DNA from: Escherichia phage vB_EcoS_W011D | DNA: 49,847 bases | Sequence record: NC_054893.1 | Strand: one strand, 5' to 3' | Part shown: in pieces, positions 13,978 through 41,778 of the stretch | Layout: every line of letters starts with the position of its first letter | Numbering within the stretch: position 1 is the stretch's first letter | The notes under the pieces: generated by a model | The model's database searches: none | What the model was told of the DNA's origin: nothing | The model's input: only the letters and a program-made list of their open reading frames with translations | Made by a program: the position numbers and the translations under genes

Positions 13978-14513
13978 TATTTCAACTCCTCCACGCCGTG
14001 AGATTTCAGGTGATTGTGTATATTCTCGCCGTAGTCAGTGACCGCGTAAGTTGTGATCCCCAGGCTGCGCATATGCTTAATAACCGTTGGCGAATCGTCA
14101 AAGGCGCACACAATGTTATCCAGGCCGATAGCGCGCAAAACCTCCTCTTTGATGATCGTGTCTTTGCGGTTGTCAAAACTCCGGCGCATGATGATGTGAT
14201 CGTAATGCACGCCGTTATCAGTGAGCCAATCGACTGATTCTTTCATTACCTCGTCGCTGCGCCCTGTTAGGATGATAACCGCAAAGCCTGACACCCAAAG
14301 GCCGTTGATAATGGCGATTGTGCTTCTGATTGGTAAATCATTAACGGCTGCGCGGTTAAATTCGCTCCATGATTCAGTTAGGTGCAAATCCTTTGTCGGT
14401 AGCAGGTGCAAGCGGTGTTTCCCGTCGCTCAACGTGCCATCGTAATCAACAATCACGATCCCTTTGTGGCGTGATGGCATAATGTAGGTTTGATCCCAAA
14501 TCTCAAATTGCAT
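13977..14513 (-). CDS. HAD-family phosphatase (polynucleotide 3'-phosphatase-like)
   Basis: HAD motif I DYDGTL near the N-terminus (T4 Pnk phosphatase domain has DVDGTL); AGGAG RBS. Confidence 0.6.
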   Translation of the reverse strand: MQFEIWDQTYIMPSRHKGIVIVDYDGTLSDGKHRLHLLPTKDLHLTESWSEFNRAAVNDLPIRSTIAIINGLWVSGFAVIILTGRSDEVMKESVDWLTDNGVHYDHIIMRRSFDNRKDTIIKEEVLRAIGLDNIVCAFDDSPTVIKHMRSLGITTYAVTDYGENIHNHLKSHGVEELK

Positions 14514-14778
14514 TGTGCAAAGCTCCTGATTTTAGTTTATTCCAGAATGCGAACGGGTTTTCATTGATAACCTCGATTTCATCATAAGTAAAGAAAAGCG
14601 TTGGCTGCGACTCTATAGGCCATGCCGCCTCGTCACGGTATAATTTATCTGGATCGTATTTCACAGATTCGCCAACCGGAATCATCCAGCCGCTATAGCC
14701 TTTCTCAGCCATCACTATTTTACCAACGGCGTGATTGAATGAAGAATAATCCGAATGTAAGATCCTAACCTTTTGCAT
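14503..14778 (-). CDS. Hypothetical protein
   Basis: 91-aa track ORF with AGAGGAAAGG RBS. Confidence 0.45.
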   Translation of the reverse strand: MQKVRILHSDYSSFNHAVGKIVMAEKGYSGWMIPVGESVKYDPDKLYRDEAAWPIESQPTLFFTYDEIEVINENPFAFWNKLKSGALHNAI

Positions 14779-14833
14779 TGCCTTTCCTCTCGTTGGTTGA
14801 TGCGGTCATGATACCAATCAGCACACATGACCG

Positions 14834-14851
14834 CTTAACATTTCGTGCTAT
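14834..14851 (-). promoter_or_regulatory. Conserved box copy, slightly truncated (ATAGCACGAAATGTTAAG)
   Basis: Immediately downstream of the 55-aa membrane ORF stop. Confidence 0.45.
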
Positions 14852-15018
14852 TACATGAACCAGCCCATGATTGCGCCAGCAGGAGCGATAACAGCGCCAA
14901 CCGCGCGAATGATTAGTTCGTTAGTAGAAATCTCGCCAAACATTGCAACGATATTCATGATCCAGCCGATAACACCAGCAATCCAAAGAGCGATAAAGCC
15001 AAAGCCTAAAGTTTTCAT
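14851..15018 (-). CDS. Small membrane protein, about 55 aa, missed by the 60-aa track cut-off
   Basis: ATG with GAGGAAATAACT RBS; two hydrophobic segments; the plus-strand ORF 14855-15103 here is judged spurious. Confidence 0.45.
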   Translation of the reverse strand: MKTLGFGFIALWIAGVIGWIMNIVAMFGEISTNELIIRAVGAVIAPAGAIMGWFM

Positions 15019-15073
15019 AGTTATTTCCTCGTTTGTTGTCGATGGGTGTATTATGCCGGATTGCTCCGGCGAT

Positions 15074-15093
15074 GTTTTAACAAAAAGTGCTAT
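15074..15093 (-). promoter_or_regulatory. Conserved 20-bp box copy (ATAGCACTTTTTGTTAAAAC)
   Basis: Box contains the TAG stop of the 28-aa micro-ORF. Confidence 0.55.
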
Positions 15094-15176
15094 TTATTCA
15101 TAGCCCATATAAACCATGCTATATGCGCCACATACACAACGCCAATTGATATGGCAAACACTGCATCAATGTTCAT
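15090..15176 (-). CDS. Micro-ORF, 28-aa hydrophobic peptide (MNIDAVFAISIGVVYVAHIAWFIWAMNK)
   Basis: ATGA overlap with the upstream 49-aa ORF; stop is the TAG of the box; manual translation. Confidence 0.35.
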   Translation of the reverse strand: MNIDAVFAISIGVVYVAHIAWFIWAMNK

Positions 15177-15322
15177 TTTAGTAAGCAAAACGCCCTTGCA
15201 TTGTATGCGTGTTTCATTACCACCTCGCGAGCCTCCAGGCAACGCGCTTTGCTGTGGAATTCCTGCGTTGTAACCGCCTCGCCTTGCATGGTGGAAATAA
15301 CCAGGATTAGAACGTGAATCAT
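15173..15322 (-). CDS. Small ORF, about 49 aa
   Basis: ATGA overlap with the stop of gene 15319-15606; GGAGA RBS; manual translation. Confidence 0.35.
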   Translation of the reverse strand: MIHVLILVISTMQGEAVTTQEFHSKARCLEAREVVMKHAYNARAFCLLK

Positions 15323-15606
15323 CCGAAAGTCTCCATTATGCCAAAAAGTGAAATCAGCGATTTATTGCGCTTCCTGCGATATTTGCGCATAACCATGCTA
15401 ACATCGCCTATCTGATGGCCTAACGTAATCGGCATTTCCGATCCGTCGCCATAGTCGTTTTCGCCTTTCTTGGGCTTGTTCTGCCAGGCCTGGATAAATC
15501 CGAACTTGTCGCGTGTAACATAGCGGTATATGTTCGGGAGGTGAATCTTGATGCCCTCAAAATCAACCTCCGCGCTATAGCTCCTGAAATTAAGCGTGGA
15601 ATTCAT
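15319..15606 (-). CDS. Hypothetical protein (start uncertain: 15606 or 15627)
   Basis: Track ORF 15319-15630 whose listed first codon is not ATG; internal ATG starts are possible. Confidence 0.35.
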   Translation of the reverse strand: MNSTLNFRSYSAEVDFEGIKIHLPNIYRYVTRDKFGFIQAWQNKPKKGENDYGDGSEMPITLGHQIGDVSMVMRKYRRKRNKSLISLFGIMETFG

Positions 15607-15748
15607 AAACAACAACCCCCATTTCATCAATCACTTGCGCCTTGTAGTAACCGCCGTTTGCCGCCAGCAAATACGCCTGGCTCAGTGTTTCAAACTCGCG
15701 GGTTACTGGCTGGCTTTGCTCGTGTTCCCAAGTAATCAAAGTGGTCAT
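15590..15748 (-). CDS. Small hypothetical protein (52 aa)
   Basis: Track ORF 15590-16057 trimmed to internal Met (MTTLITWEHE) preceded by CGAGGATTTAGCA leader; the upstream part of the track ORF overlaps the lipoprotein gene. Confidence 0.45.
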   Translation of the reverse strand: MTTLITWEHEQSQPVTREFETLSQAYLLAANGGYYKAQVIDEMGVVVYEFHA

Positions 15749-15803
15749 TGCTAAATCCTCGTTTCGTTTCGATGGGGTTACTATATCGCAACCCCTGAAT
15801 CGA

Positions 15804-15823
15804 GTTTTAACAAAAAGTGCTAT
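15804..15823 (-). promoter_or_regulatory. Conserved 20-bp box copy (ATAGCACTTTTTGTTAAAAC)
   Basis: Followed by hairpin GGGGTT/AACCCC with TATAGT between the arms, then leader CATCGAAACGAAACGAGGA. Confidence 0.6.
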
Positions 15824-15903
15824 CTTGCGATAATCCACGCGATCCAGAATATGACCGTAAGCCAGATAAAAATTCCTATTGCAAATTGTCCAGGCTCTTT
15901 CAT
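15820..15903 (-). CDS. Micro-ORF, 27-aa hydrophobic peptide (MKEPGQFAIGIFIWLTVIFWIAWIIAR)
   Basis: ATG overlaps the lipoprotein TAA stop (TAATG); stop is the TAG inside the box; manual translation. Confidence 0.4.
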   Translation of the reverse strand: MKEPGQFAIGIFIWLTVIFWIAWIIAR

Positions 15904-16223
15904 TATCGCTCGTCCTGGCGAGTGCAACCCTTGCCGCAAGCGTGCGATCCTGTTTCGGTGATACCAACACCAGAAACGCCGATGTACTCTTTGCCAGTCT
16001 GCTTGTCGGTGATGATGTAAATCCCGCGCTTGTCGTTGTACGCCAGGCCATCAGCAAATTCAGTTAACTTGCGCACACTCACGCGGTCGTGATCTGCTCC
16101 TGTTTCAACCTGCATTCTAATGCGTGCATGTTCCGGCGTGCGGGTGTCGCTATCGCAACCAGTCAGCATCACCACGCCAGCAACAACCAGGATTGCGCCT
16201 AACGCTACTTTGAATTTGTTCAT
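15903..16223 (-). CDS. Lipoprotein (signal peptide with lipobox MLTGC)
   Basis: 106-aa ORF; N-terminal MNKFKVALGAILVVAGVVMLTGC fits a signal peptidase II substrate; GGAGGG RBS. Confidence 0.6.
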   Translation of the reverse strand: MNKFKVALGAILVVAGVVMLTGCDSDTRTPEHARIRMQVETGADHDRVSVRKLTEFADGLAYNDKRGIYIITDKQTGKEYIGVSGVGITETGSHACGKGCTRQDER

Positions 16224-16471
16224 TTCTTGCCCTCCACTGGTTCAACTGTGAATTTCTCACCCTCACGCATAAGCGCATTCATTGCCGTTTCAAGCGCTGG
16301 CGATCCGACAATATATTCAATATTCAAATCGCCGGACACCAGGCGAACGCGTGGCTGTTGCAGGTGATGAACATCTTTGATAATCAGATCCCAGCATTTA
16401 GAGTTAGGGCGGTGTTCGCCCAGGATTTCAACGATCTGCTCTGCTACTTTGCGAATGTCTGCGTGGTTCAT
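16220..16471 (-). CDS. Hypothetical protein
   Basis: 83-aa track ORF with AAAGGAGAA RBS. Confidence 0.45.
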   Translation of the reverse strand: MNHADIRKVAEQIVEILGEHRPNSKCWDLIIKDVHHLQQPRVRLVSGDLNIEYIVGSPALETAMNALMREGEKFTVEPVEGKK

Positions 16472-17029: not shown

Positions 17030-17650
17030 AAAGACAAAACAGCGCCTAAGTCATTGAAAACAGGCTGTCTTTTTTTCTGTTAACGCTGTTAACGAGTTGC
17101 GGAGGATTAAATATATATAGATGCGCACACGCCACCCCACCCAGGCGAGCGCATACCCATATATCACTATACATCAATCCAGACACTACCCCATATCCAC
17201 CATAAACAGTGTGAACAATAAAAACAACAAATAGATATATATAAATAAATATACTTTAATTTCAATGTATTATAGAGGATTTATAGTGTTTATTTTGTTT
17301 ACTCAACACCGAAAAACGGCGCGGAAACAATGCGGAGAAATCTGTGAACACCCATGAACAAGAGGAGACAAAGCGCCATGGCGAGAGCGAAAACTTGACA
17401 CTTGCGAACCAGGTTTCACCATTCCCCACACAATCAGTAAAAATTCACACTAATTATTGTCTAAACTGCAACAATCACTATCTTGCATGATGTGCAACGA
17501 TATGCGGCTATCATTTCAGATTTTGCAATGGTGCTGCAAAGCGGTTGTTTTATACACAATCCATCAATAGCACTTTTTGTTAAAAGCGATCGGATCTGAT
17601 TTGCTATAGTTACTTCATCGAAACGGGATACCCAATCAGGAGCAAGCAAG
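17030..17650. other. 620-bp AT-rich non-coding region between the divergent early operons, carrying a ~150-bp element homologous to one in 36530-36990
   Basis: No ORF of 60 aa or more with an RBS; contains ACAAATAGATATATATAAATAAATA and GTGAACAC boxes shared with the second region. Confidence 0.6.
17567..17586 (+). promoter_or_regulatory. Conserved 20-bp box copy (ATAGCACTTTTTGTTAAAAG), first of the rightward early block
   Basis: Followed 18 nt later by TATAGT and the CATCGAAACGGGA leader before the 17652 start. Confidence 0.6.
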
Positions 17651-18853: not shown

Positions 18854-19047
18854 TTAGATATGCTGCGTATCTTGTAAGCAGGATTGACAGGAACGACAAA
18901 ACGCTAATTGCAACCGCTAACAACCTGGTTAACGCAATCCAGGCGTTTGAGGACTACAACACGCATCACATCAACCGGAATTACAAAAAGGTTGTAGAGC
19001 GTCAGCGCTGCGAGTGGGTAACGGAAGATAAAATCACATATCTTTGA
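18850..19047 (+). CDS. Hypothetical protein
   Basis: 65-aa track ORF; ATGA overlap with the upstream gene. Confidence 0.4.
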   Translation: MIRYAAYLVSRIDRNDKTLIATANNLVNAIQAFEDYNTHHINRNYKKVVERQRCEWVTEDKITYL

Positions 19048-19048
19048 A

Positions 19049-19068
19049 ATAGCACTTTTTGTTAAAAC
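19049..19068 (+). promoter_or_regulatory. Conserved 20-bp box copy (ATAGCACTTTTTGTTAAAAC)
   Basis: Followed by hairpin GCGCCC/GGGCGC with TGGTATAAT between the arms. Confidence 0.6.
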
Positions 19069-19348: not shown

Positions 19349-19410
19349 TTCCTGATTGGTTCAAAGGGCGGATTTTGCGCCGCCCAACAATAATTGCGAG
19401 GTGAAATTAA

Positions 19411-19635
19411 ATGGCTCAAGATGGTTTCTTTGCGCGACTGCATGAAGCGGAGGCGGCTGGACTAAACAAAGAGGCTGCGTTAGAGGTTGCGTATAAATTA
19501 ATCAGCCTTGATGATGCGTTGGGTGCAATGGACATGGATCAAGAATGTGGCGCTATTCTTGCAGATCCGACAACAATCATTAACGATTGCGGCTGCAATT
19601 TCGATCCATCATGCAAGCGTTGTTTTCCATTCTGA
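19411..19635 (+). CDS. Small acidic protein with C-terminal Cys cluster
   Basis: 74-aa track ORF with GAGGTGAAATTAA RBS. Confidence 0.45.
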   Translation: MAQDGFFARLHEAEAAGLNKEAALEVAYKLISLDDALGAMDMDQECGAILADPTTIINDCGCNFDPSCKRCFPF

Positions 19636-19644
19636 GGGTGAATT

Positions 19645-20340
19645 ATGGTTATTTGGTCACTGTTTGACGGCTCCGGCATTATGGGCCTGGATTGGGCGAA
19701 AGCTGGTCACACTGTTTTCTGTTTCAATGCTGATACAGCGGATCACGGCGAATACGAAATCAAGATGCAGCATGAAAACCTGCATTATGTGAATGCCTGG
19801 ATTGATGAAACGTTTGATCCGGCTGGCTCGGTGGCTTACCTATCAGGGAACCAGCAAAAGGTAATCAGCAAGCCTGACATTATTTTTGCTTTCCCGTCAT
19901 GCACTGAGTTAGCGCATAGTGGGCGCAAGCATGAGCGCAACGAGGACGCTGTTGATCTGGCTGTCAGTAATGCAAAACTGGTTGAGGCGTTAGGCAATCG
20001 CTATGGTTGCCCCTGGATGGTGGAAAATCCCGTGGGGCTTCTGTCAACTAAATGGCGCAAACCAAACCATTACTTTCACCCGTTCGAATACGGCGGATAC
20101 ATGCGAGAGGATGAAAAGCCTTATCATCCAAAAATGCCAGCTTTCGACGGGTACACAAAGAAAACTTGCATTTGGTGCGGTAACGGTTTTGTTATGCCTG
20201 ATAAAGTACCAGGCCCGATCAATATAGGTTTCTTTTGGGCGTGGAAGTATTTAGGCGGAAAGTCTGCCAGGACAAAGCAATTGCGCTCACTCACCCCTCG
20301 CGGCTTTTCGCGTGCCGTCATGATCTTTAATTCAAAATAG
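19645..20340 (+). CDS. Short SAM-dependent methyltransferase-like protein, possibly cytosine-C5 type (atypical motifs)
   Basis: 231 aa; LFDGSGIMG resembles MTase motif I, FPSCTE resembles a catalytic Cys motif (not canonical PCQ), ENPVG resembles the ENV motif; too short for a classical target-recognition domain. Confidence 0.4.
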   Translation: MVIWSLFDGSGIMGLDWAKAGHTVFCFNADTADHGEYEIKMQHENLHYVNAWIDETFDPAGSVAYLSGNQQKVISKPDIIFAFPSCTELAHSGRKHERNEDAVDLAVSNAKLVEALGNRYGCPWMVENPVGLLSTKWRKPNHYFHPFEYGGYMREDEKPYHPKMPAFDGYTKKTCIWCGNGFVMPDKVPGPINIGFFWAWKYLGGKSARTKQLRSLTPRGFSRAVMIFNSK

Positions 20341-20356
20341 CACTTTTTGTTAAAAG
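20337..20356 (+). promoter_or_regulatory. Conserved 20-bp box copy (ATAGCACTTTTTGTTAAAAG)
   Basis: Box contains the TAG stop of the upstream gene; followed by hairpin GCCAGG/CCTGGC then CATAAT. Confidence 0.6.
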
Positions 20357-22731: not shown

Positions 22732-23124
22732 ATGATGTTTCTCTTAGATCTGTATAAATTTTGTGAAAGTTACGATTGGTTTAACCGTCAACATTTGGCA
22801 AAGTTTGTTTTTCAGCACAAAGAGTGTGAGCGGCTCGCGAGAGCCGCAAACATGACACCGCGTAAATTCGCCTCAAGCGTTTCTCTTGAGTTTATCCCGC
22901 GAATGGCTACATTGGGATACCTTGATATAAAAAACGGCGTGGTGACGTGCTACGGCTCGAAAAAACGGCCTTTCCGGTTTGAGTTGTATAGTCTGGAAGG
23001 TGAGAGCAATAAATACATTTACGATCTATTTCACCTGAATGAGTTAAGCGATGAAGAATTATTCTGCTCAAAAACTAATCGACGAGATATTGAAGCATTG
23101 CGCCGTAAATTCAATCTCACATGA
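22732..23124 (+). CDS. Hypothetical protein
   Basis: 130-aa track ORF starting 4 nt after the upstream stop. Confidence 0.4.
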   Translation: MMFLLDLYKFCESYDWFNRQHLAKFVFQHKECERLARAANMTPRKFASSVSLEFIPRMATLGYLDIKNGVVTCYGSKKRPFRFELYSLEGESNKYIYDLFHLNELSDEELFCSKTNRRDIEALRRKFNLT

Positions 23125-23245
23125 TGATCTGATTTATGCGCTGTTAACCATAATGCGAGCCGACATGAAAGCGTTTGGCGACAAGGAGCATAATTTATGT
23201 GATGGTGATGGCGTGATATTGGTTAACGTCAGATTGCTTGAATAG
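23051..23245 (+). CDS. Possible overlapping small ORF (64 aa); may be spurious or a frameshift partner
   Basis: Overlaps 22732-23124 by 74 nt in another frame; weak RBS; its stop lies in the next box copy. Confidence 0.2.
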   Translation: MKNYSAQKLIDEILKHCAVNSISHDDLIYALLTIMRADMKAFGDKEHNLCDGDGVILVNVRLLE

Positions 23246-23261
23246 CACTTTTTGTTAAAAA
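23242..23261 (+). promoter_or_regulatory. Conserved 20-bp box copy (ATAGCACTTTTTGTTAAAAA)
   Basis: Followed by hairpin ACCCGAT/ATCGGGT then TATATT and the CATCGAAACGAAAC leader. Confidence 0.6.
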
Positions 23262-23322: not shown

Positions 23323-23550
23323 ATGAGCACCAAATTTGTTGCAGTTCGCGTAAACCACTTTGCAAACGGTCAATCAATCGAGGTTCAAACCGTTTACAAC
23401 AAGGCTAATGGATGGAGCCATTACGACGCGCTGAAAGTTGAGCACGATATTGCAAAGCGTTTTGGCTGGGAGGTTTACGAAGTCTACATTAAACCATACG
23501 ACGAAAACGACAAGCCGACAAATGAATCTCATGAGTGGCAAGACGCATAA
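23323..23550 (+). CDS. Hypothetical protein, last gene of the rightward early block
   Basis: 75-aa track ORF with AAAAGGAAATCACC RBS; followed by a bidirectional terminator. Confidence 0.45.
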   Translation: MSTKFVAVRVNHFANGQSIEVQTVYNKANGWSHYDALKVEHDIAKRFGWEVYEVYIKPYDENDKPTNESHEWQDA

Positions 23551-23556
23551 AAAAAA

Positions 23557-23572
23557 GGAGCCGTTAGGCTCC
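23557..23572. terminator. Bidirectional rho-independent terminator GGAGCCGTTAGGCTCC
   Basis: Perfect 6-bp stem with A8 upstream and T-rich tract downstream; the stop codon and last codons of the u-spanin gene lie inside the hairpin. Confidence 0.7.
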
Positions 23573-23956
23573 TTTCTTGTTTCTACCGTAACCGATAGCA
23601 ACCAGCATGATAGCGATTGCAGCGAAAAACAAAACGCTCGTTTGCCAATCCAGGCCGCTATCTGAATTACGGATCTCTATCTTATCCGCCGTTATGGTTT
23701 CAGCCTGAATGCTTGAGGCGCTCACCTTCTTTTTGTTTGAGGTGTCAACCTTGCCAACGGCTGAATCCTTAATCGTGCTTTCCTGCTTGCTGCTGGTGTC
23801 CTGCTTTGCCGTTACGCCTACCGTTTGTTTTACGTTTTCTGCTCCGGCTTGTGCTGTGATTTCCGGCTTACTGCCAATCAAACCAGTCAGCGCGCTTGAT
23901 GCCGAACAACCGGAAAGCATTACCGAAACTGCAATTGCTGTGATTACTCGTTTCAT
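23564..23956 (-). CDS. Unimolecular spanin (T1 gp11-type): lipoprotein signal plus C-terminal transmembrane helix
   Basis: 130 aa; N-terminal signal with lipobox LSGC; C-terminal hydrophobic helix [16 protein letters not shown] followed by basic tail; directly downstream of endolysin with ATGA overlap. Confidence 0.65.
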
Positions 23957-24959: not shown

Positions 24960-26081
24960 TTATTTGATCTCCATCATTTCAGGGTAGAACATGAAGCGAC
25001 CAATCTCGCCATATTCCTTATCGTAAACAATCACCGCCGCACGACGACGAGAGCGCCAACCACCGCGCGCCGCGTAAGCGTCTTTTGCTGCCATAGTGGA
25101 ATGTACTTCCACAATCCCCAGGCTCGTTTCTGTTACGGTCTGGTGATGCCAATGGCCTACATGCGCATACATGCTCTTTGAGTTTCCGAAATCCTCCCGC
25201 CAATCTGCCGCGCACATCATCAACAGCGTTTCAGGCTTGCGGATCGTATGTCCATGATGGTAAGCCAGGAACGTTTTACCATATTGCGTGTGATGCACAA
25301 CGCGCGGAGACACATCAACGTTTACGCGAGGCTCGTTTTCGTATGCCGCCGCCATTGCAGCACGTAGCCAGATCATTCCTGATTGGTCGTGATTACCTTC
25401 AATGATTTGCACCTCAACCTCTTTATGCTTTGTCAGCATGAGGCTAATTGCGCGGCGCGTGGCTCGGATTGCAACGTAAACTAATTTTGCGTAACGGCTA
25501 TCTTGATCCAGAACGTGACCGCTTGCAGGTGTTACAGCCTCCAGGCCGTCACTGTGAAGCATATCGCCACCAATCAGGAGCACCGCCTTTTCACTGTTTG
25601 GCGATTTACTAACTGCATAATCGAAAAAGTTATTCATAACCCTTTCCGCCGTTGCGGTGTCGTAGTTCTCGCCGCACTCATGCTTGTGAGCCATTGCCCC
25701 CAGGTGCATATCAAAGATCGGATATAAAGCCAGGCTTTCAGAATAATCAGCGCGTGATTCCGGCTGAGGCTCCAAGCGTGGCACTTCCTCTGCGAAAGCA
25801 TCCATAGCGGCTTGCATGAGAGCCTCTAATTGCTCTTTGTCTTTATTGGTGATAGTCCATCTCATGACTTCCTCACCATTTGCGCGAGTTAAAACAGACT
25901 CGCGCACAACTGCATAACCTGGAGCGCCTTTAATTTCAGTCTCACCAGAACGCGCAAGGCGTGACGCTCGACGCTCGACACTGCGAACATTAAGGCCGAA
26001 CTCCTCTGCGATCTGCTTGTAGGTTTTCCCCTCTTTGCGTGCTTTAATAAACTGCTCGTCGGTGATTTTTCGTACAGCCAT
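24960..26081 (-). CDS. Calcineurin-like metallophosphoesterase with N-terminal helix-turn-helix domain
   Basis: 373 aa; N-terminal HTH-like KTYKQIAEEFGLNVRSVERR; phosphoesterase motifs FDMH, GGDMLHSD and GNHD in order; AAGAGGAA RBS. Confidence 0.6.
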   Translation of the reverse strand: MAVRKITDEQFIKARKEGKTYKQIAEEFGLNVRSVERRASRLARSGETEIKGAPGYAVVRESVLTRANGEEVMRWTITNKDKEQLEALMQAAMDAFAEEVPRLEPQPESRADYSESLALYPIFDMHLGAMAHKHECGENYDTATAERVMNNFFDYAVSKSPNSEKAVLLIGGDMLHSDGLEAVTPASGHVLDQDSRYAKLVYVAIRATRRAISLMLTKHKEVEVQIIEGNHDQSGMIWLRAAMAAAYENEPRVNVDVSPRVVHHTQYGKTFLAYHHGHTIRKPETLLMMCAADWREDFGNSKSMYAHVGHWHHQTVTETSLGIVEVHSTMAAKDAYAARGGWRSRRRAAVIVYDKEYGEIGRFMFYPEMMEIK

Positions 26082-26572: not shown

Positions 26573-26628
26573 TTTGCAAATCCTCGTTTCGTTTCGTTGA
26601 AATGATTATGCCCCACTTTCGCGGGGCT

Positions 26629-26648
26629 GTTTTAACATTTCGTGCTAT
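26629..26648 (-). promoter_or_regulatory. Conserved 20-bp box copy (ATAGCACGAAATGTTAAAAC)
   Basis: Contains the TAG stop of 26645-26878; followed by hairpin CCCCGC/GTGGGG then ATAATC and the conserved leader. Confidence 0.6.
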
Positions 26649-26878
26649 TTGTGCATATCGATCATTTCTTGCAGGTCTTTTGCGATCTGTTCTTGCCACC
26701 TCTCAAGAGGTAACGACCTTGTTTCTTCAAAGCTCATATCGAGCGCGCTTGAATACTCCCACGGGTCGCAATCAATAATCTCCTTTGCGTGCGGGTTTTT
26801 ATCTAGCGCCTCGCATACCATTGCGCGGAATAACAACCACTCGCCAGTTTCATTAAGCAACAAGGCTCTTTCTTTCAT
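26645..26878 (-). CDS. Small acidic protein
   Basis: 77-aa track ORF; ATGA overlap with the upstream micro-ORF. Confidence 0.45.
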   Translation of the reverse strand: MKERALLLNETGEWLLFRAMVCEALDKNPHAKEIIDCDPWEYSSALDMSFEETRSLPLERWQEQIAKDLQEMIDMHK

Positions 26879-27736: not shown

Positions 27737-27791
27737 TTTAAATGTCCTCGCTTGTCTTGATGTGTGCATTATGGCGCATTCCGTTGCGCCT

Positions 27792-27811
27792 GTTTTAACA
27801 AAAAATGCTAT
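27792..27811 (-). promoter_or_regulatory. Conserved 20-bp box copy (ATAGCATTTTTTGTTAAAAC)
   Basis: Contains the TAG stop of the VRR-NUC gene; upstream of Dam. Confidence 0.55.
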
Positions 27812-28239
27812 TTATAGAAAAGATCCGCAATAGCCAGTTTGAATTGTTCGAACCCATAAGCCACAGCCGCAAATCCTCCGCGCTGGCGAACATCACGCAA
27901 AAAAGCCTTTTGTTCGTCGCTGACAGGTGATGCCTTTCCCTTTCCAGATTTGTTCACGCGCTTTAATTCAATAGCTGCAAACGGGTATGGCATATCGCTA
28001 TAAGACGGATCACCAATCAAGATAACGAAATCAGAAACACCCTTTCGCAATCCGGCTTGTTCATCCCTCAATGCGCTGGTAATCGTCTTTTGCCCCTCAT
28101 TTACCGTGTGCCAAAATAAAAGTTGCGGGTAATGGTGGCGCAACCACGCCACGCAATCAACCTGGTGCGAATCCTCTTTCCTGGTATCACTCGGATCGCG
28201 TTCGTAATACTCCAGGTAATCTCCCTTATCAGTAATCAT
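27808..28239 (-). CDS. VRR-NUC-type PD-(D/E)xK nuclease
   Basis: 143 aa with SDFVIL ... AAIELK arrangement typical of VRR-NUC; directly downstream of the helicase. Confidence 0.5.
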   Translation of the reverse strand: MITDKGDYLEYYERDPSDTRKEDSHQVDCVAWLRHHYPQLLFWHTVNEGQKTITSALRDEQAGLRKGVSDFVILIGDPSYSDMPYPFAAIELKRVNKSGKGKASPVSDEQKAFLRDVRQRGGFAAVAYGFEQFKLAIADLFYK

Positions 28240-28241
28240 AA

Positions 28242-30242
28242 TTAAAACTCCCGATGATAAATAATATCCTCGCCTTTCGCATTTTTGCGATGCGTAACCT
28301 TAACTGGCGGTAAAATATGATGTGCATAACTCATGATTTTACGCGCATTGCGATAGCTGGCAACCATTCCGGCAATTCTGCGATCTGGAATATGTTTAAG
28401 CGCCGTTTGTCGCCATTTCGTTTTGCAGATCTGGCTATCTGACTCAGGGAAAAACTTTTCGTAAGCCTTAAATGTTTCTCCGTGTGCCTCCAATTCATAG
28501 CAGAACACGATCCCTTTTTGGTTTTTCGTCATATCGACACGGAACGATTTCACATTGCACCAATCGTTTTTGGTGTAGTGCTTGCCGGATAACTTTTCGT
28601 TAGGGTCTATTAGTGACACATCACAATGACGGCAAATTCTCGCTACAACATCATTTTTTGTTCCGCAACCATGCACAATAACTTTTTTCGTGCGCGGGTC
28701 AATCTGATCTGTGCATTCTCTAAATTTCCAGAAGTGTTCACACCGATTACCATTTTCATCAACCTTTATGCAGCGGCGAGCGTAGAATGAATTTTCAGTG
28801 CCGCAAATCGGGCAATGTTTCGGATCTTTTCCGTTGTCGTGTCGGCGCTGAAACTGCGCTTGCTCCAGGATAGGATCAAAATAAAGTTGCCCTAATTCAT
28901 CCATGCATCCGGCAAAGTCTAAAACAAGATGATCGCTTTTCTTGAATCCCTGCTCAACATGCCATTTTTTAAGCAGTCGCATTCCGCGCCCTAAAAGCTG
29001 AATCAGCAACGTGAGCGATCCGATTTTTCGAAGAATAACGGATGTATCCCAAAACGGAACGTTAACGCCAGTTGTTAAGGCCATGACCTGGAAAATATAT
29101 TTCACTTTTCCCTCGTATGCCTCGCGTAACCATTCCTTACGCTGTTTTTCTCCTGTCTTGCCAGTGATAATGCGGTATGTTGTGCCAGGCGGTAAAGCCG
29201 CCGCCGCCTCTTTGCAATGTCGCTCACCAGCGCAAGTTACCAACACGCCGTTTCTGTCTTTGCAGATCTCATGCACGCGAGCCATAATTTTTTGTGTCAT
29301 GGTTGCGTCATTGTGGATCTTCTCCTCCATCTTGCGGAGTGTTTTCTGATCGAAGTCGGCAACGCCATCCTCGCTTGATGCCGTGAACTCTGAAAGGTCA
29401 TACCCCAGGCCATCAACATTGCCAAAATTCGTTGGCACAACAGAACCGAACTCGATCAAATAATTTGTGTCGATGTTCGTTACCTGCTCACGCCAGAAAC
29501 CTTTCTGCTTTTTATCCTCAACCAGAATTGGTACAACACCGCGAAATTCCGATCCAGTCATTCCAAAAATTCGCAACTCATGCCCGTAAGCCTCTTTACA
29601 ACGTCGCTGCATTTCACGAATGATTATTGTGTATTGGCTGCGTCCTGTTCCCTCCATTGGTTCACCGTCTTTTGTGAAAACTTGCGAGCCATCACCATTC
29701 AGGACGCGAACGCCTTTTTTAGTGGTCATTTGCTCGAATGTTTCCTCGCTTTCGATTGAATCCGCTAAATCTTCCCAATCGACCTGGTGACATTCGTCAA
29801 TACCGATAACATGCGGCACATAATCGCCAAGAGCCTTAAACAGACCATTTGCAACAGTTCCCTCGGAACCAACTACAATTGGAAAGTATGCGCTTTTGGT
29901 GTTGAGTCCTGCGCAATAGATAGAGTTTGGCACACCGAAGTTTGTGATCTCCTCTGAATCCTGATCCACAATTTCGGCCTGGCGAGCCAGCACCATCATT
30001 TTTAGCCCCATCTTTTTACACTGCGCGGCAACCATAGCAAAGATGATTGTTTTACCAGCGGAAACGGAAGCCTTTACGAAAAACGGATCGTTGTATTTAC
30101 TCAGGCGCTTTGCGATCTCAGCGTATGCAACGCACTGATAAGGATATGGCTTAATGTCGCCAACGGTAAAGCGATCCTGAATCGCCTTTATCACCGCATC
30201 GCCTAATGTAGATAATTGCTTTTTAATGTTTGGAATTGCCAT
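28242..30242 (-). CDS. SF2 (DEAD/DEAH-type) DNA helicase with C-terminal zinc-finger region
   Basis: 666 aa; Walker A SVSAGKT, DExH box IGIDECHQV, and C-terminal CPICG/CRHC cysteine pairs. Confidence 0.75.
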   Translation of the reverse strand: MAIPNIKKQLSTLGDAVIKAIQDRFTVGDIKPYPYQCVAYAEIAKRLSKYNDPFFVKASVSAGKTIIFAMVAAQCKKMGLKMMVLARQAEIVDQDSEEITNFGVPNSIYCAGLNTKSAYFPIVVGSEGTVANGLFKALGDYVPHVIGIDECHQVDWEDLADSIESEETFEQMTTKKGVRVLNGDGSQVFTKDGEPMEGTGRSQYTIIIREMQRRCKEAYGHELRIFGMTGSEFRGVVPILVEDKKQKGFWREQVTNIDTNYLIEFGSVVPTNFGNVDGLGYDLSEFTASSEDGVADFDQKTLRKMEEKIHNDATMTQKIMARVHEICKDRNGVLVTCAGERHCKEAAAALPPGTTYRIITGKTGEKQRKEWLREAYEGKVKYIFQVMALTTGVNVPFWDTSVILRKIGSLTLLIQLLGRGMRLLKKWHVEQGFKKSDHLVLDFAGCMDELGQLYFDPILEQAQFQRRHDNGKDPKHCPICGTENSFYARRCIKVDENGNRCEHFWKFRECTDQIDPRTKKVIVHGCGTKNDVVARICRHCDVSLIDPNEKLSGKHYTKNDWCNVKSFRVDMTKNQKGIVFCYELEAHGETFKAYEKFFPESDSQICKTKWRQTALKHIPDRRIAGMVASYRNARKIMSYAHHILPPVKVTHRKNAKGEDIIYHREF

Positions 30243-30331: not shown

Positions 30332-30775
30332 ATGAATCGAATCGCTGTTTCAACTGGTGAAGTGGATAAACGCACAATCAATGGTAATAACGGGACACGT
30401 CGCGGAAAAGACAAAAAGCCGCGCAAGCGCAAAACAGGTTACTACGTGCTGAAAGATGAAGTAAAGGCCGGATTGCGTGCGCGCCTTGATATCTTACTGG
30501 AGTATTACGGAACGCAAGCCGAAATGTCGCGCCGTTTGAAGGTGTCGTGTCAGACCATTAACCAATGGAAGAAACGAGGCATGATTTCCGCCAGCGGAGC
30601 GCACAAGGTTCATCAGGACTATAAGCGCCAGGGGTGCAAGGGCTATCGCGCTTCATTCTGCCGCCCCGATCTGAAATTCGATTCAAACGGCAAGCCGTTA
30701 ACACTCAAGTGTGAAAAGCGCGAAATGCTCCGCGTTGTTCGCGCCTCAGATTTCGAAAACAGCACAAATAGCTAA
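30332..30775 (+). CDS. Helix-turn-helix DNA-binding regulator candidate
   Basis: 147 aa; basic N-terminus; HTH-like AEMSRRLKVSCQTINQWKKRGMIS; first gene of the rightward primase operon. Confidence 0.45.
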   Translation: MNRIAVSTGEVDKRTINGNNGTRRGKDKKPRKRKTGYYVLKDEVKAGLRARLDILLEYYGTQAEMSRRLKVSCQTINQWKKRGMISASGAHKVHQDYKRQGCKGYRASFCRPDLKFDSNGKPLTLKCEKREMLRVVRASDFENSTNS

Positions 30776-31865: not shown

Positions 31866-33941
31866 ATGGCTATTTATCGCACTGGACAAGCGTCTATGGA
31901 CGCTCAAGGATACATCACCGGATATGATACAAAATGGCGTGAGCAACTTTCATTAATCCGCCCTGGTGCAACAATCTTTTTTATTGATGCTCCTTTTCAA
32001 GCGGCTGTGATTAGTGAGGTTATCAGCGATACACAAATCCGCGCCATCACAACTGGCGGCGCTGAAATTGGGCGAAGCAATTACATCATTTTGCTGCATG
32101 ACTCAATCACGGTTGACGGCCTGGCGCAAGATGTTGCGGAAACTCTGCGCTACTATCAAAGCAAAGAAACTCAGATCGAGGAAGCTATTGAATTTTTCAA
32201 AAACCTTGACCTGAAAACTTTGCAGGATTTGGTTAATCAGATTAAAGGTGATGCAGAAAAAACAGCCGCTGATCGCGCTGCAACTGAACAACTGAAAAAC
32301 GACACTCAACAGATAAAGGATTCTGCTGTCGCTGAAACAAACCAGATCAAGTCCGACACTGACGCAATCAAAAGCCAAACTCAACAGATCAAGGATTCCG
32401 CTGTAAATGAAACGGAAGCCATTAAGCAAGGGGCTTTTGGCGCTCGCGATCAGGCTGAATTGGCGCGTGATGCGGCTGGAAATCATGCCGTTGATGCTAA
32501 TAATGCAAAGGCTGGCGCTGAGACTGCGCGTGATGAAGCGCGTCAATGGGCGCAACAGGTACAGCCTGAAAATCTGTTACATAAAGATCAGAACCTTAAT
32601 GATCTTGCAAACAAAGACCTTGCAAGGGAGGCGTTGAAAGTTGAGGCGGTTAATTCTGTAAAAGGTCAGGCTGCTGGAGATTATAACTCTTTCCGCAACC
32701 CTGCATGGACTTATGAATTGCGGATCGCTAACAATGGCGAATGGCGCGTTGCAAGAAATAGCGATGGATCAACGTCTGCTCTTTCTGTTGGCGCTGGCGG
32801 TACTGGTGCGGAAAACGTAGAAGGCGCAAGGATAAACTTTAGGCTTCAAGGATTTGACACATTGTCAAGTGAGTCAAGGGTATTAAATCCTCAAAATGTA
32901 AGCCAATACATATTTATGAATTCGATTGGTGGTTGGGGTGCTTACGACTCTGAAAATGTAAGAGCAATTCCGCTATCGCTTGGCAATGGTGGAACTGGAG
33001 GTACAGATCAGAATAGCGCTCGCCATAACTTAGGATTATCCATTAATCACTCCCCTGTTTTTGCTGGTATTGATTTGCAAGGTCTTAACGGCACAACGTC
33101 AGGGATCATGGTTTTAAGAAATAGAGATGCTGGAGGCGCTCAAGTTTCATACTCAAGAATTTACCATGAAATTCAGGCTGGAGTTGCCAGAACAACAATA
33201 CAAACAACAAGAGAGGGTGGTGGTACTAACTATTTTCAGATTGATGAAACTGGACTTGTTAATAATGTTAGGGCGATAAGATGTTCTCCGTCAAATGTTG
33301 GTGGCGAGGGATTTACCGTTGGCGTTGTTCCTGGTGGAGGATTTGCAGCCTGGAGAGATCGACCTGCTGGAATGATTGTTGAGCACCCAAGCGATGATGT
33401 TGCGGTTAACGTATTGAAATCTGTCCGTTGGGGCGGAGATTGGGTTATGGGGATTGACGCTGCAAGGTATGGCGCTGGAGGTTGCGAGGTTCATCTAAAT
33501 GTAAGAGGTACTACATATACATTTAATGATGCTGGTTATGCGTCTGCTGTTCAGTGGGTTAACACATCCGATATTCGCCTGAAAGCAAATCTAAAAGAGA
33601 TTGAAAGCGCTAAAGAAAAAGTGAAATCAATAAAAGGTTACACTTATTTCAAGAGGAATAATCTTGATGAAGATGAGCACTCTTTCTACTCTGAGGAAGC
33701 TGGTGTAATAGCTCAAGACGTGCAAAGTGTTTTGCCGGAAGCGGTTTACAAGATTTCAGATTCTGAATATTTAGGTGTTAGCTATGGCGGGGTTACTGCT
33801 CTTTTAGTTAACGCATTCAACGAAATGAGCGATCAGATTGACAAGCAACAAGAGGAGATCGAAACACTGAAATCTGAAATTGCAGATCTTAAAGCGGCGT
33901 TTGAGGCGTTACTCAACAAGCCAACAACGCTGGAAAGTTAA
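31866..33941 (+). CDS. Side tail fibre / receptor-binding protein with C-terminal intramolecular chaperone (peptidase S74-type) domain
   Basis: 691 aa; repeat-rich coiled-coil shaft; C-terminal SDIRLKANLKEI (Ser-Lys dyad motif) followed by a heptad-like coiled coil; AT-rich distal half with AGA/AGG codons. Confidence 0.75.
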   Translation: MAIYRTGQASMDAQGYITGYDTKWREQLSLIRPGATIFFIDAPFQAAVISEVISDTQIRAITTGGAEIGRSNYIILLHDSITVDGLAQDVAETLRYYQSKETQIEEAIEFFKNLDLKTLQDLVNQIKGDAEKTAADRAATEQLKNDTQQIKDSAVAETNQIKSDTDAIKSQTQQIKDSAVNETEAIKQGAFGARDQAELARDAAGNHAVDANNAKAGAETARDEARQWAQQVQPENLLHKDQNLNDLANKDLAREALKVEAVNSVKGQAAGDYNSFRNPAWTYELRIANNGEWRVARNSDGSTSALSVGAGGTGAENVEGARINFRLQGFDTLSSESRVLNPQNVSQYIFMNSIGGWGAYDSENVRAIPLSLGNGGTGGTDQNSARHNLGLSINHSPVFAGIDLQGLNGTTSGIMVLRNRDAGGAQVSYSRIYHEIQAGVARTTIQTTREGGGTNYFQIDETGLVNNVRAIRCSPSNVGGEGFTVGVVPGGGFAAWRDRPAGMIVEHPSDDVAVNVLKSVRWGGDWVMGIDAARYGAGGCEVHLNVRGTTYTFNDAGYASAVQWVNTSDIRLKANLKEIESAKEKVKSIKGYTYFKRNNLDEDEHSFYSEEAGVIAQDVQSVLPEAVYKISDSEYLGVSYGGVTALLVNAFNEMSDQIDKQQEEIETLKSEIADLKAAFEALLNKPTTLES

Positions 33942-33959
33942 CAAAAAAATAATAACAAG

Positions 33960-33985
33960 GCGCGGCTCCGGCTGCGCTTTTTTTC
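33960..33985 (+). terminator. Rho-independent terminator after the tail fibre gene
   Basis: GC-rich imperfect hairpin GCGCGGC/GCTGCGC followed by T7. Confidence 0.55.
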
Positions 33986-34106: not shown

Positions 34107-34205
34107 ATGTCTGATATAACTCTGTTACCAACTGGCGGAGATTTTGGTGGTGAAGCTGGGCGGCTGGCCTTGGCGGTGCTGGGAATGGCAGAAAGCGAAA
34201 AATAA
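34107..34205 (+). CDS. Candidate micro-ORF, 32 aa (MSDITLLPTGGDFGGEAGRLALAVLGMAESEK)
   Basis: ATG with GAGGTG RBS; ends at a terminator hairpin; in the 290-bp gap between the fibre gene and SSB. Confidence 0.25.
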   Translation: MSDITLLPTGGDFGGEAGRLALAVLGMAESEK

Positions 34206-34209
34206 AAAA

Positions 34210-34225
34210 GGAGCCGAAAGGCTCC
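34210..34225. terminator. Terminator GGAGCCGAAAGGCTCC (same hairpin as 37226-37241)
   Basis: Perfect stem with GAAA tetraloop; T-run on the minus strand after the SSB gene, weaker T-tract on the plus strand. Confidence 0.65.
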
Positions 34226-34234
34226 TTTAGTCGT

Positions 34235-34654
34235 TTAAAACGGAATGTCATCATCAAAGGTTTGTTGCGGTGCTGGCTGTCGCTGCGGCTGGCTTTGTTG
34301 CTGCCCTGATTGCTGCGGCGCTGCGGCTCCTCGCTGACTGAACACTAAGCGCGGTTGCTCCATTTGCAATGTTGAGTACATTTGCCCGTTATGCTCGCGA
34401 TTGTTGATTTTTAGCGCCTCACAAGACACGCTAATAACTTTCCCTTGCTGCAATGCTTCATCGTACCATCCGCGCATTGCATCGCTTGAAGCAAAGAACG
34501 TTGCGCTGTAATTGGTATAAATTCGCTCTTGTGTTTGCCGATCCTTAATGCTTTCCGATAGCTCTACAATGTACATCTTGTAAGCGCCGGAATTGTTTTG
34601 CCCCTCTTTAACGTAAGGCTCTTTGCGTAACTCGCCAGTGATAATGTGCGGCAT
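34235..34654 (-). CDS. ssb: Single-stranded DNA-binding protein (SSB)
   Basis: 139 aa; Gln/Pro-rich linker and canonical acidic C-terminal tail DDDIPF. Confidence 0.8.
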   Translation of the reverse strand: MPHIITGELRKEPYVKEGQNNSGAYKMYIVELSESIKDRQTQERIYTNYSATFFASSDAMRGWYDEALQQGKVISVSCEALKINNREHNGQMYSTLQMEQPRLVFSQRGAAAPQQSGQQQSQPQRQPAPQQTFDDDIPF

Positions 34655-36543: not shown

Positions 36544-36990
36544 ATAGGTGTAATGTTATTTTTTGTTTTCTGTTGTTTGTTTTCTATAGTGATAACAAAA
36601 TTGCATCGTAAGTTATTGATTTTGTCTTTGTTGTTTTTGTGTTTACCGTGTTCACAGATTTACGCCGGATATATAGGAATAGATACACATAAACAAAATG
36701 ACCATTACACAAAGTGAAATCACCACAACCAACCAAAAACCAATGAAACATAGAGAACAAAAAGAAACAAATAGATATATATAAATAAATAAACTCTTAT
36801 TTTTCATGTATATAGTAATATTTACTGTATGCTTATTGCTCAATAGCTGATTAAAAAATAAGCTAAATTTACGCCTACGCAAATTCGTGAACACTCTGGA
36901 ACAAAAGAAAACAAACGATAGCACTTTTTGCTAAAACTTCCGGTCGAGATCGTGTATAGTGAGCGCATCTAAACCAAAAGAGGAAAACAA
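36530..36990. other. 460-bp AT-rich non-coding region carrying the second copy of the ~150-bp element shared with 17030-17650
   Basis: No credible ORF; shares ACAAATAGATATATATAAATAAATA and GTGAACAC boxes with the first region, same orientation and spacing. Confidence 0.6.
36917..36936 (+). promoter_or_regulatory. Conserved 20-bp box copy (ATAGCACTTTTTGCTAAAAC) upstream of the Cor-like gene
   Basis: Followed 17 nt later by TGTGTATAGT (extended -10-like). Confidence 0.55.
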
Positions 36991-36991
36991 A

Positions 36992-37219
36992 ATGAAAAAG
37001 ATGATTGCCGTTTTAATTGCAGCCGTTGCCCTGACTGGTTGCGCAAATATGCCGAAACGCGAATGCACCGCAATTTATGAGAATAGCGGAATGGATTATG
37101 AAGTTGCGATCTTTGGCGTTAAGCGAATTAACGATCACACATTCGTGAAGCCTGGCTATCCTTTCAGTTATCATTGGGTTAGCATTGAAAACTTTAAAAA
37201 CGCAGATTGCAGCATTTAA
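36992..37219 (+). CDS. Small lipoprotein, Cor/Llp-like superinfection-exclusion candidate
   Basis: Track ORF trimmed to MKKMIAVL start with AAGAGGAAAA RBS; lipobox LTGC; 75 aa; encoded opposite to and just beyond the tail-fibre genes. Confidence 0.5.
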   Translation: MKKMIAVLIAAVALTGCANMPKRECTAIYENSGMDYEVAIFGVKRINDHTFVKPGYPFSYHWVSIENFKNADCSI

Positions 37220-37225
37220 AACAAA

Positions 37226-37250
37226 GGAGCCGAAAGGCTCCTTTTTTATT
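37226..37250. terminator. Bidirectional terminator GGAGCCGAAAGGCTCC plus T6
   Basis: Identical hairpin to 34210-34225, between convergent genes. Confidence 0.7.
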
Positions 37251-37920
37251 AGTCGTATGCCGCCGTGTTAATTGCTGTAACCGCAACGCCTGTATTTAAA
37301 TAACCCGCTGGCGATCCTCCTGCGGATTGGTTTGAAGCCGCATGAATCCTTGTTGTCGAGCCATTAAAATTTGCTGCCGTATATGCCGAAACGTTAACTA
37401 TTACTGGCTGCTGACCAGGAATGTAAACCTGCACTAAAGTTGCCCCCATTAATCTAGGCATTACAGCGTAAGATCCTGATAATGTTTGATCTATGTAAAT
37501 CCCTCCTCCGCTTCCTGGTGTTCCTATAGTAACGAGATCCGATAATGGCTTGCTCTCATTTGTTAATATACATGTCCCGCTTGCGTCCCATATAGCCATA
37601 CCCCATTTTGGGATTGGTTGAGGAAATCTTGCAAATAAATAACAAGTTATGGTGAATAGCGGAACGTTCCTACCCTGCGCGGAGCCGCTAAAAACAATAT
37701 AATCACCCTGCCTACTACACCCTAAAGCAGCGCCCCAACTACATTTTATAAATCCTATTGCTGAATAGGATGCAGGACAATAAACCCTTGATACAGCACT
37801 AACATATTGAGCCGAATCTCTTGTTGCTACCGCCTCAGTTCTTGAATATAAAACAAAAGGCGTTGATTCAGGAGTAACAAAAGTTTGCCCGTTATAATCT
37901 ATCATTGCACCGTAGGCCAT
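37249..37920 (-). CDS. Hypothetical tail-associated protein (223 aa, AT-rich gene, N-terminus MAYG)
   Basis: Track ORF; last gene after J; AT-rich codon usage unlike the rest of the tail module. Confidence 0.45.
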   Translation of the reverse strand: MAYGAMIDYNGQTFVTPESTPFVLYSRTEAVATRDSAQYVSAVSRVYCPASYSAIGFIKCSWGAALGCSRQGDYIVFSGSAQGRNVPLFTITCYLFARFPQPIPKWGMAIWDASGTCILTNESKPLSDLVTIGTPGSGGGIYIDQTLSGSYAVMPRLMGATLVQVYIPGQQPVIVNVSAYTAANFNGSTTRIHAASNQSAGGSPAGYLNTGVAVTAINTAAYD

Positions 37921-38229: not shown

Positions 38230-38273
38230 AATAAAATCTCCTGTAAAGGTGGGGTGTCTCCACCCCACATATA

Positions 38274-41699: not shown

Positions 41700-41755
41700 A
41701 GCTTTTAACCTTTTGTGCTGTTTATCGGTTTACACATTATACGGGCGCAAAAAAC

Positions 41756-41778
41756 CCCGCGCAAGGCGGGGTGTGCTT
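41756..41778 (-). terminator. Terminator between tail assembly I and J genes, followed by TATAAT and a degenerate box copy (41702-41721) next to the J start
   Basis: CCCCGCCTTGCGCGGGG then TTTTTTG on the minus strand; ACAGCACAAAAGGTTAAAAG lies between TATAAT and the J start codon. Confidence 0.55.

Follow-up and report, generated by a model that had tools for sequence, protein, structure and literature searches.

Rho-independent terminators have been annotated in the genome of phage T1 at 43966-43988, 32632-32664 and 29602-29628 (taken here from the GenBank features of NC_005833), where the spanin gene faces the early leftward genes, the gene for the single-strand DNA-binding protein (SSB) faces the tail fibre gene, and gp31 faces cor. 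T1-like phages encode neither an RNA polymerase nor a sigma factor (PMC11447400), and hairpins of this kind would therefore be signals for the host enzyme. In Escherichia coli, one hairpin element has been reported to set both 3' ends of convergent gene pairs (Ju et al. 2019; bioRxiv 10.1101/2022.10.23.513370). The lambda terminator tR2 is almost fully repressed in vivo by translating ribosomes at a spacing of 8-9 nt and requires more than 30 nt for full efficiency (PMC4824070). The T1-type unimolecular spanins (u-spanins) have been defined as a family in a survey of spanins (PMC6139136), and all terminators of phage TLS were described as intergenic when that genome was re-annotated (PMC11447400).

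The DNA analysed here (the window, 49,847 nt in full) is that of a T1-like siphophage that is 97-98% identical to Escherichia phage PaulSarasin (Bas09; L103 in our comparison set), which is classified in Drexlerviridae, Tempevirinae, Changchunvirus. The first and the last 81 nt of the window (1-81 and 49767-49847) are identical, which points to a circularly closed or permuted assembly rather than to true ends. Gene identities were taken from PHROG matches and from the annotations of relatives. Hairpins are present at the same three junctions as in T1, and terminators at these junctions are thus not new, as they are already annotated in the T1 record. The three hairpins of the window are predicted to be bidirectional Rho-independent (intrinsic) terminators for host RNA polymerase (probability roughly 0.75); their positions, structure, conservation, covariation and distribution were observed, and from these we infer actual termination and its efficiency.

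Hairpins at the three convergent junctions

The pattern GGAGCC-N4-GGCTCC (GGAGCCNNNNGGCTCC) had three matches in the window, at 23557-23572 (site 1), 34210-34225 (site 2) and 37226-37241 (site 3), and no others. Since 100 dinucleotide-preserving shuffles yielded 0 matches (expected number, 0), a chance origin of the three copies was rejected, and the use of one stem at three sites, reported in a preliminary description of this DNA, was confirmed. When the sites were read directly, the palindrome proved to be longer than the GGAGCC core, spanning 22 nt (AAAGGAGCC-NNNN-GGCTCCTTT) at 23554-23575, 34207-34228 and 37223-37244. Each copy forms a perfect 9-bp stem, which consists of the 6-bp GGAGCC/GGCTCC core (five of its pairs are G-C) and three A-T pairs, and is closed by a loop of four nucleotides, which reads GTTA at site 1 and GAAA at the other two sites. 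Sites 2 and 3 had been described as identical over 34210-34225 and 37226-37241, and their identity extends to exactly 22 nt. RNA folding at all sites and in both orientations gave minimum free energies (MFE) of -14.2 to -21.3 kcal/mol, with z-scores of -3.2 to -4.8. A search of the entire window against Rfam at the gathering score returned 0 matches. The AAGGAG within the stem was considered as a ribosome-binding site and rejected, there being no plausible start codon or open reading frame (ORF) downstream on either strand at any site; it is treated as the consequence of an A-run followed by a stem that starts with GG.

According to the ORF map of the window and the complete annotation of PaulSarasin, the genome has exactly three convergent gene junctions. 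The hairpins occupy precisely these three, in agreement with the preliminary description, which had placed them at the ends of converging units. All six of the converging stop codons lie inside a hairpin or within 6 nt of its stem. Every hairpin stands between an A-run and a T-run (AAA...TTT), so that RNA from either strand ends in a hairpin and a U-tract; such symmetric flanks between convergent genes are the mark of a bidirectional terminator. The features of an intrinsic terminator were likewise found at all three sites: the hairpins directly follow the last genes on both strands, and hence stand at the 3' ends of transcription units; the stem-loops are GC-rich, within the range of about 5-14 bp, and have short loops; and a U-rich tract lies 3' of the stem, its quality varying with site and strand. 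The terminator scan gave the same picture and flagged all three hairpins, site 3 on both strands. The promoter/terminator consensus scan as a whole was not above shuffles (25 versus 21.1, 21 versus 19.6, and 21 versus 19.3), and its individual top-ranked matches alone were used.

Site 2 (AAAGGAGCC-GAAA-GGCTCCTTT, 34207-34228, both strands; found by pattern match, scan and RNA fold) lies beyond the SSB gene (34235-34654, - strand; PHROG 44, E=1.5e-30, and the PaulSarasin annotation), which is the last gene of the recE-erf-ssb unit and has its stop at 34235-34237, 6 nt from the stem. The tail in the SSB sense, UUUUUUAUUUUU on the - strand, is strong and was rated excellent. The + strand tail, UUUAGUCGUUU, is weak, with merely UUU before AGUCG. 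Symmetric AAA...TTT hairpins, with at least five different stems, followed the SSB gene in 26 of the 27 sequences with an SSB end that were compared (the window and 26 relatives); in contrast to site 2, the co-directional terminator between primase and tail fibre genes in the relatives has no A-run.

On the other side of site 2 is a 32-amino-acid (aa) ORF on the + strand (34107-34205), the stop of which (34203-34205) is 1 nt ahead of the stem. Comparison with PaulSarasin identifies this ORF as a deletion scar, in which the N terminus of the 'sugar-binding protein' encoded by PaulSarasin runs on into the final ∼11 codons of bas09_0029. The missing ∼1.7 kb corresponds to PaulSarasin 14587-16305 (region compared, 14511-16338), with a 9-nt overlap at the joint, and in PaulSarasin it holds most of four accessory genes that follow the tail fibre gene. 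A one-way terminator that was found by the scan, AAGGCGCGGC-TCCG-GCTGCGCTTT followed by a T-run, is located directly after the tail fibre gene of the window (33957-33980, + strand). Site 2 is thus only a second stop for + strand transcription.

Site 3 (AAAGGAGCC-GAAA-GGCTCCTTT, 37223-37244; flagged by the scan on both strands and supported by RNA folding) separates a gene for a Cor-like superinfection-exclusion lipoprotein (36959-37219, + strand; PHROG 1119, E=2.8e-26; 51% identity to T1 Cor) from the gene for a homologue of T1 gp31, a membrane-associated protein (37249-37920, - strand; PHROG 425, E=2.3e-58). The stop of the Cor-like gene (37217-37219) is 3 nt ahead of the stem. The gp31-like gene is the last of the long - strand tail operon and ends ..AAYD* (GCA TAC GAC TAA), its stop at 37249-37251 lying 4 nt from the stem. 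The DNA tails at this site are UUUUUUAUUAG (+ strand, cor sense) and UUUGUUUUAAAUG (- strand, tail-operon sense), and the corresponding RNA tails were rated excellent on the + strand (UUUUUUAUU) and good on the - strand (UUUGUUUU).

The gp31-like and gp32-like genes after the tail-tip gene J (37249-38268) diverge from their PaulSarasin counterparts (19383-20346), with ∼46% protein identity for the gp31-like gene, and the flanking DNA is 96-99% identical. The region looks like a swapped mosaic cassette with the site 3 hairpin as one of its borders. In the related contigs L188 to L192, the hairpin at the end of the J-like gene, AAAGGGGGCC-AATC-GGCTCCCTTT, has a G-U pair in the middle of the stem when read in the sense of the gene and an A-C mismatch on the other strand, which suggests a terminator that acts at the RNA level and chiefly in one direction.

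The u-spanin stop codon in the hairpin loop

Site 1 (AAAGGAGCC-GTTA-GGCTCCTTT, 23554-23575, both strands; 9-bp stem; MFE, -17.3 kcal/mol on the + strand and -21.3 kcal/mol on the - strand) differs in its loop and in its relation to the coding sequence. The + strand unit that reaches it ends with a 75-aa ORF (23323-23550; PHROG 27210; bas09_0047 of PaulSarasin), the stop of which (23548-23550) is 3 nt ahead of the stem. The gene on the - strand (23564-23956) encodes a u-spanin of 130 aa (PHROG 1804, 'Rz-like spanin', E=1.5e-47; annotated as a u-spanin in PaulSarasin). The protein has a lipobox, LSGC (within MLSGC), near its N terminus and a C-terminal hydrophobic membrane segment, and ends ..GRNKKGA; its gene follows those for the holin and the endolysin. 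A lipoprotein signal, a C-terminal membrane segment and a place as the last gene of the lysis cassette, all found here, are what define a T1-type unimolecular spanin. The gap between the two converging stops, 13 nt, is shorter than the hairpin.

The last codons of the u-spanin gene on the - strand are AGA AAC AAG AAA GGA GCC TAA (R N K K G A stop). The final three sense codons, AAA GGA GCC, are the 5' arm of the hairpin, and the TAA (23564-23566) fills positions 1 to 3 of the - strand loop, TAAC. The preliminary description had placed the final codons and the stop of the spanin inside the hairpin and given the C terminus as KKGA, and both statements were correct (codons AAG AAA GGA GCC TAA). 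The - strand RNA reads GGCUCCUUUUUUUUAUG. The U-tract of the spanin-sense terminator corresponds to a run of eight A residues on the + strand (23549-23556) that starts within the TAA stop of the 75-aa ORF, and this U8 tail was rated excellent. The + strand terminator has a U-rich tail, TTTCTTGTTTCT (23573-23584; RNA tail, UUUCUUGUUUCU), which is interrupted. Read on the other strand, TTTCTTGTTTCT gives the spanin codons AGA AAC AAG AAA, which encode the basic tail (R-N-K-K) after the C-terminal membrane segment.

The same layout was found throughout the T1-like spanin genes. Ninety-seven T1-like loci that encode relatives of the spanin (72 from IMG/VR, together with others) gave 57 distinct 3' ends, and in 55 of these 57 the last three codons form the 5' arm of a perfect hairpin (8 bp or longer) whose loop holds the TAA; the background for such hairpins near random positions in T1-like genomes was 0.46%. 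The three terminal residues are K-G/E/A-A/Q, the protein ending in KGA, KEA, KAA or KAQ according to the type of stem. At least seven types of stem were recognized (GGAGCC, GGGGCA, GGGGCT, GGGGC, GGCGGC, GGAGGC and GGCCC), each with its own noncoding 3' arm. Hairpins folded from their own arms averaged -14.9 kcal/mol, compared with -11.6 kcal/mol when the 3' halves were swapped between stem classes.

Covariation was scored on an alignment of equal-length 22-mers from sites 1 and 2 (alignment A3). Two-sided changes were found in six of the nine pairs, and the score was 0.46, compared with 0.11 for shuffled alignments, none of 500 of which reached it. The alignment was drawn from hairpins that the hairpin search had already detected, and the percentage of paired positions is therefore partly a product of its construction; it also holds two out-of-register 23-nt hairpins (site 2 of PHB17 and of T1), which were counted as unpaired. 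Two MAFFT alignments, one anchored on codons (A1) and one of the hairpins only (A2), were discarded for pair counting because the registers fell in different columns.

Two of the distinct ends were exceptions. L126 has a different C terminus and no hairpin. L199, from IMG/VR, ends ..RRKK TAA, and GGAGCC-GAAA-GGCTCC follows 2 nt later, an un-overlapped state. The claim that the C terminus of the spanin is tied to the structure of the terminator thus holds for the window and is general, given the 55 of 57 ends, the covarying stems and the low background. Judged from these comparisons, the T1-type u-spanin gene inherited its stop-in-loop layout from its ancestor, and the phage of the window is not peculiar in having it. 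This layout has been kept across at least two subfamilies (Tunavirinae and Tempevirinae), and drift of the stem by compensatory change drags the last residues along (GA, EA, AA, AQ). The last two residues of the spanin are variable and look like a side effect of the stem. Neither the spanin survey (PMC6139136) nor the TLS re-annotation (PMC11447400) mentions an overlap of spanin and hairpin. With about 25 nt shared by coding sequence, terminator stem and the template of the opposing U-tract, the site is a compact natural example.

Recurrence of the stem and origin of the three copies

The exact 22-mer with the GAAA loop (AAAGGAGCC-GAAA) was found in 102 viral stretches of IMG/VR, about two thirds of which (∼70) are unrelated to the phage of the window. 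In the unrelated viruses it lay between convergent ORF ends in 36 cases, between co-directional genes in 18 and after one gene end in 11; only one copy was inside an ORF. Among bacteria, the same 22-mer is present in at least 120 genomes, which represent many phyla, with Vibrio, Enterobacter, Clostridia, Bacteroidota, Leptospira and Prochlorococcus among the matches listed. A variant with one changed pair, GGGGCC (AAAGGGGCC-GAAA), was present in 50 IMG/VR viral stretches, whereas no IMG/VR stretch contained AAAGCGAGC-GAAA-GCTCGCTTT, a stem with the same bases in permuted order. The counts of 102 and 50, compared with none for the permuted stem, point to a strong preference for GG...CC stems beside an A-run and a T-run. 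With so many occurrences in unrelated viruses and in bacteria, identity alone is no proof of descent, and the identical stems of the window were most likely drawn from a limited set of favoured stems of the AAAGG..CC kind, which turn over at the three junctions and have arisen again and again in unrelated genomes. In general, with one and the same 22-mer arising in phages and bacteria that are unrelated, identity of terminator sequence is by itself weak evidence of common ancestry.

It was also considered that the hairpins are true copies of one element, spread by recombination within and between T1-like genomes and serving as short, conserved linkers for the exchange of modules. The reuse of one terminator at module boundaries had been taken in the preliminary description as a mark of modular assembly, and some observations are in its favour. 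Sites 2 and 3 are identical at 22 of 22 positions, and on the - strand ACGACT(AA) closely precedes both hairpins; these letters belong to the end of the gp31-like gene at site 3 and to noncoding DNA at site 2. This hints at copying and is suggestive only, the probability of the ACGACT match by chance being only about 0.003 and the match unreplicated. Similarity to PHB17 begins exactly at 23551 and at 34239, and similarity to PaulSarasin stops at 37278, beyond which the gp31-like gene is 46% identical. In the 20-44 kb region, 14 of 388 ends of high-scoring segment pairs (HSPs) fell within 40 nt of the three hairpins, compared with ∼5 expected. A distant lineage (L198; IMGVR_UViG_3300045988_049800) resembles the window in that GGAGCC is present at the ends of spanin, SSB and J, and other T1-like contigs carry the 22-mer at a fourth position, upstream of the tail fibre gene, where the window has ACCCCGC-TACG-GCGGGGT.

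Against descent from one element, besides the wide occurrence of the 22-mer in unrelated genomes, stands the patchy turnover of hairpin types among T1-like relatives, in which each junction varies independently of the others. PHB17, of the same genus, has GGAGCC at the spanin only, KLB26 and BubbaBully have it at the SSB junction only, the clade L188 to L193 has GGAGCC at the spanin and GGGGCC at SSB, and T1 has GGAGGC, GCCCCGC and GCCCC at the three equivalent junctions. The presence of GGAGCC at the spanin did not predict the 22-mer elsewhere (2/10 versus 16/62 among IMG/VR contigs with the spanin locus), and with this lack of association homogenization of hairpins within a genome was dropped as the main explanation. 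From rough frequencies within the family of ∼0.4, 0.5 and 0.17, a triple match would be expected in ∼0.5 of 15 lineages, and two were seen. Breakpoints at operon ends are, moreover, expected in any mosaic phage. Nor do the hairpins have the character of an element of the REP or MITE type, there being three copies only, with identity over 22-25 nt, all at convergent ends.

Spread of copies of one element is thus an unlikely explanation, though not a negligible one, and the three identical stems are probably not descended from one mobile 'module'. The earlier proposal is partly supported, in that similarity breakpoints between the window and its relatives lie at or beside the hairpins; the stem types at the junctions turn over independently from phage to phage. 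In our reading, the hairpins stand at the ends of operons, where the boundaries of a mosaic genome are naturally placed, and the stem that they share is one of a small number of favoured solutions; occasional copying from site to site may have occurred.

T1 (NC_005833, L107) repeats one hairpin, CCCGCCTTGCGCGGG with a T-run, at 22793-22816 and 24972-24994, co-directionally within the tail operon; at the equivalent position upstream of J, the window has ACCCCGCCTTGCGCGGGGT (41754-41772). From this double use in T1, reuse of identical terminator stems within a genome seems to be common in Drexlerviridae.

The window also contains another repeat of ∼20 nt, AATAGCAC-N5-TGTTAAAA, at ∼20 sites and always oriented with local transcription. 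Examples on the + strand are 17558-17585, 19040-19067, 20328-20355, 23233-23260, 36909-36936 and 47637-47664, and examples of the reverse complement lie at 6242, 10397, 11698, 12700, 13876, 15075, 15805, 26630, 27793 and 30300. It matches the 21-nt direct repeat aaATAGCACnnnTTGnTAAAA reported in TLS and T1 (PMC11447400). Several copies are followed by a short GC hairpin and then by a -10-like hexamer (27759-27815 and 26596-26652, - strand sense), as in TTGTTAAAAC-A-GGCGCAACGGAATGCGCC-ATAATG on the - strand. The T1 equivalents (NC_005833 38973-39001, 39998-40024 and 41980-42007) are annotated as rho-independent terminators, although they have no U-tract. These hairpins look more like part of a promoter, with the hairpin in a spacer of ∼22 nt, than like terminators.

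Predicted function and comparison with known systems

If the three hairpins act as bidirectional terminators, RNA from either strand would end in a stable hairpin followed by a U-rich tract, polymerases would be stopped before running antisense into the facing operon, and each mRNA would be left with a protective 3' hairpin. At site 1, the Lys, Asn and Arg codons of the spanin would double as the template for the U-tract of the opposing terminator. No 3'-end or read-through mapping for any Drexlerviridae phage was found in the literature searched. The poor U-tracts, at site 2 on the + strand (UUU before AGUCG) and at site 1 on the + strand (interrupted), count against this reading, and so does the nearness of all six stop codons to the stems: in view of the repression of tR2 by ribosomes (PMC4824070), termination of well-translated messages could be leaky, and the hairpins may then serve in part to protect 3' ends or to pause polymerases that meet head-on.

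It is conceivable, though rather unlikely, that ribosomes run up to the hairpins and make them poor terminators in vivo, the main role of the hairpins being to protect mRNA 3' ends from exonucleases or to pause polymerases for head-on collisions that would fix where transcription ends. The stops lie inside the hairpin or 1-6 nt from the stem, and ribosomes this near repressed tR2 (PMC4824070). Hairpin pausing combined with polymerase collision has also been proposed for the terminators of convergent genes in E. coli (bioRxiv 10.1101/2022.10.23.513370). However, canonical U-tracts directly after a hairpin of -14 to -21 kcal/mol, in both orientations, are the classical intrinsic signal, and the annotated one-way terminators of T1 as a rule show equally tight spacing between stop and hairpin. 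Protection or pausing and termination are, besides, not mutually exclusive roles.

The proximity of the ribosome could also be put to use. Selection for a two-way terminator that ribosomes gate, and not mere tolerance, may account for the family-wide stop-in-loop layout, but we regard this as doubtful. A ribosome finishing the spanin ORF would then melt the hairpin, and termination of the late lysis transcript or protection of its 3' end, together with antisense read-through into the unit opposite, would depend on the level of spanin translation. The terminal G/E/A-A dipeptide would in that case be a by-product of the stem and no functional part of the protein. In a second reading, compatible with such gating and likewise doubtful, the few terminator stems that T1-like phages share may serve as micro-homology linkers for the exchange of modules.

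It is very unlikely that the 22-bp palindrome is a DNA site (the operator of a dimeric regulator, or a cruciform or recombination site) instead of an RNA signal, since, although it is a perfect palindrome at three defined places and a putative transcriptional regulator is encoded at 30332-30775, the junctions of relatives carry unrelated GC stems in which the sequence has been replaced and the pairing kept, which fits a conserved structure and not sequence-specific binding, the sites are at the 3' ends of genes and not at promoters, the A-run and T-run flanks are always present, and unrelated bacteria and phages without this regulator carry the identical sequence.

Read as bidirectional intrinsic terminators, the hairpins give a clean map of transcription units with three convergent ends, each closed by a predicted two-way terminator, which is of value for annotation. 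The hairpin with the stop in its loop offers a test case for the effects of ribosomes on intrinsic termination, and a natural bidirectional terminator of 22 nt is a candidate for use in synthetic biology. The hairpins themselves are an ordinary kind of signal, and the detail worth keeping is the family-wide u-spanin with its stop in the loop and its covarying stems.

Among the closest systems already described is T1. It shares the symmetry of AAA-stem-loop-stem-TTT with the window, and its terminator at 43966-43988 overlaps the end of gene 11 (AAA AAG GAG GCG TAA GCC TCC TTT), with the stop in the loop. The three T1 stems differ from the GGAGCC used at all three junctions in the window, the frame in which the hairpin is read differs by 1 nt, so that T1 ends ..KKEA and the window ..KKGA, and the terminator at the end of the spanin gene is annotated in one direction only in T1. 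The terminators of convergent genes in E. coli are alike in that a single hairpin lies between two converging genes; however, that class was described as noncanonical and collision-driven, whereas the phage hairpins are canonical, with hairpin and U-tract on both strands. In the lambda tR2 study (PMC4824070), as here, the stop was a few nucleotides from the hairpin, and a terminating ribosome covers the stem; there the close spacing was engineered and deleterious, whereas in T1-like phages the stop in the loop, the tightest spacing that there can be, is conserved across the family. Elements of the REP type are also repeated palindromes at gene 3' ends, often between convergent genes, but those of the window differ in being three copies with perfect 9-bp stems, an A-run and a T-run, conservation over no more than 22-25 nt and no associated transposase.
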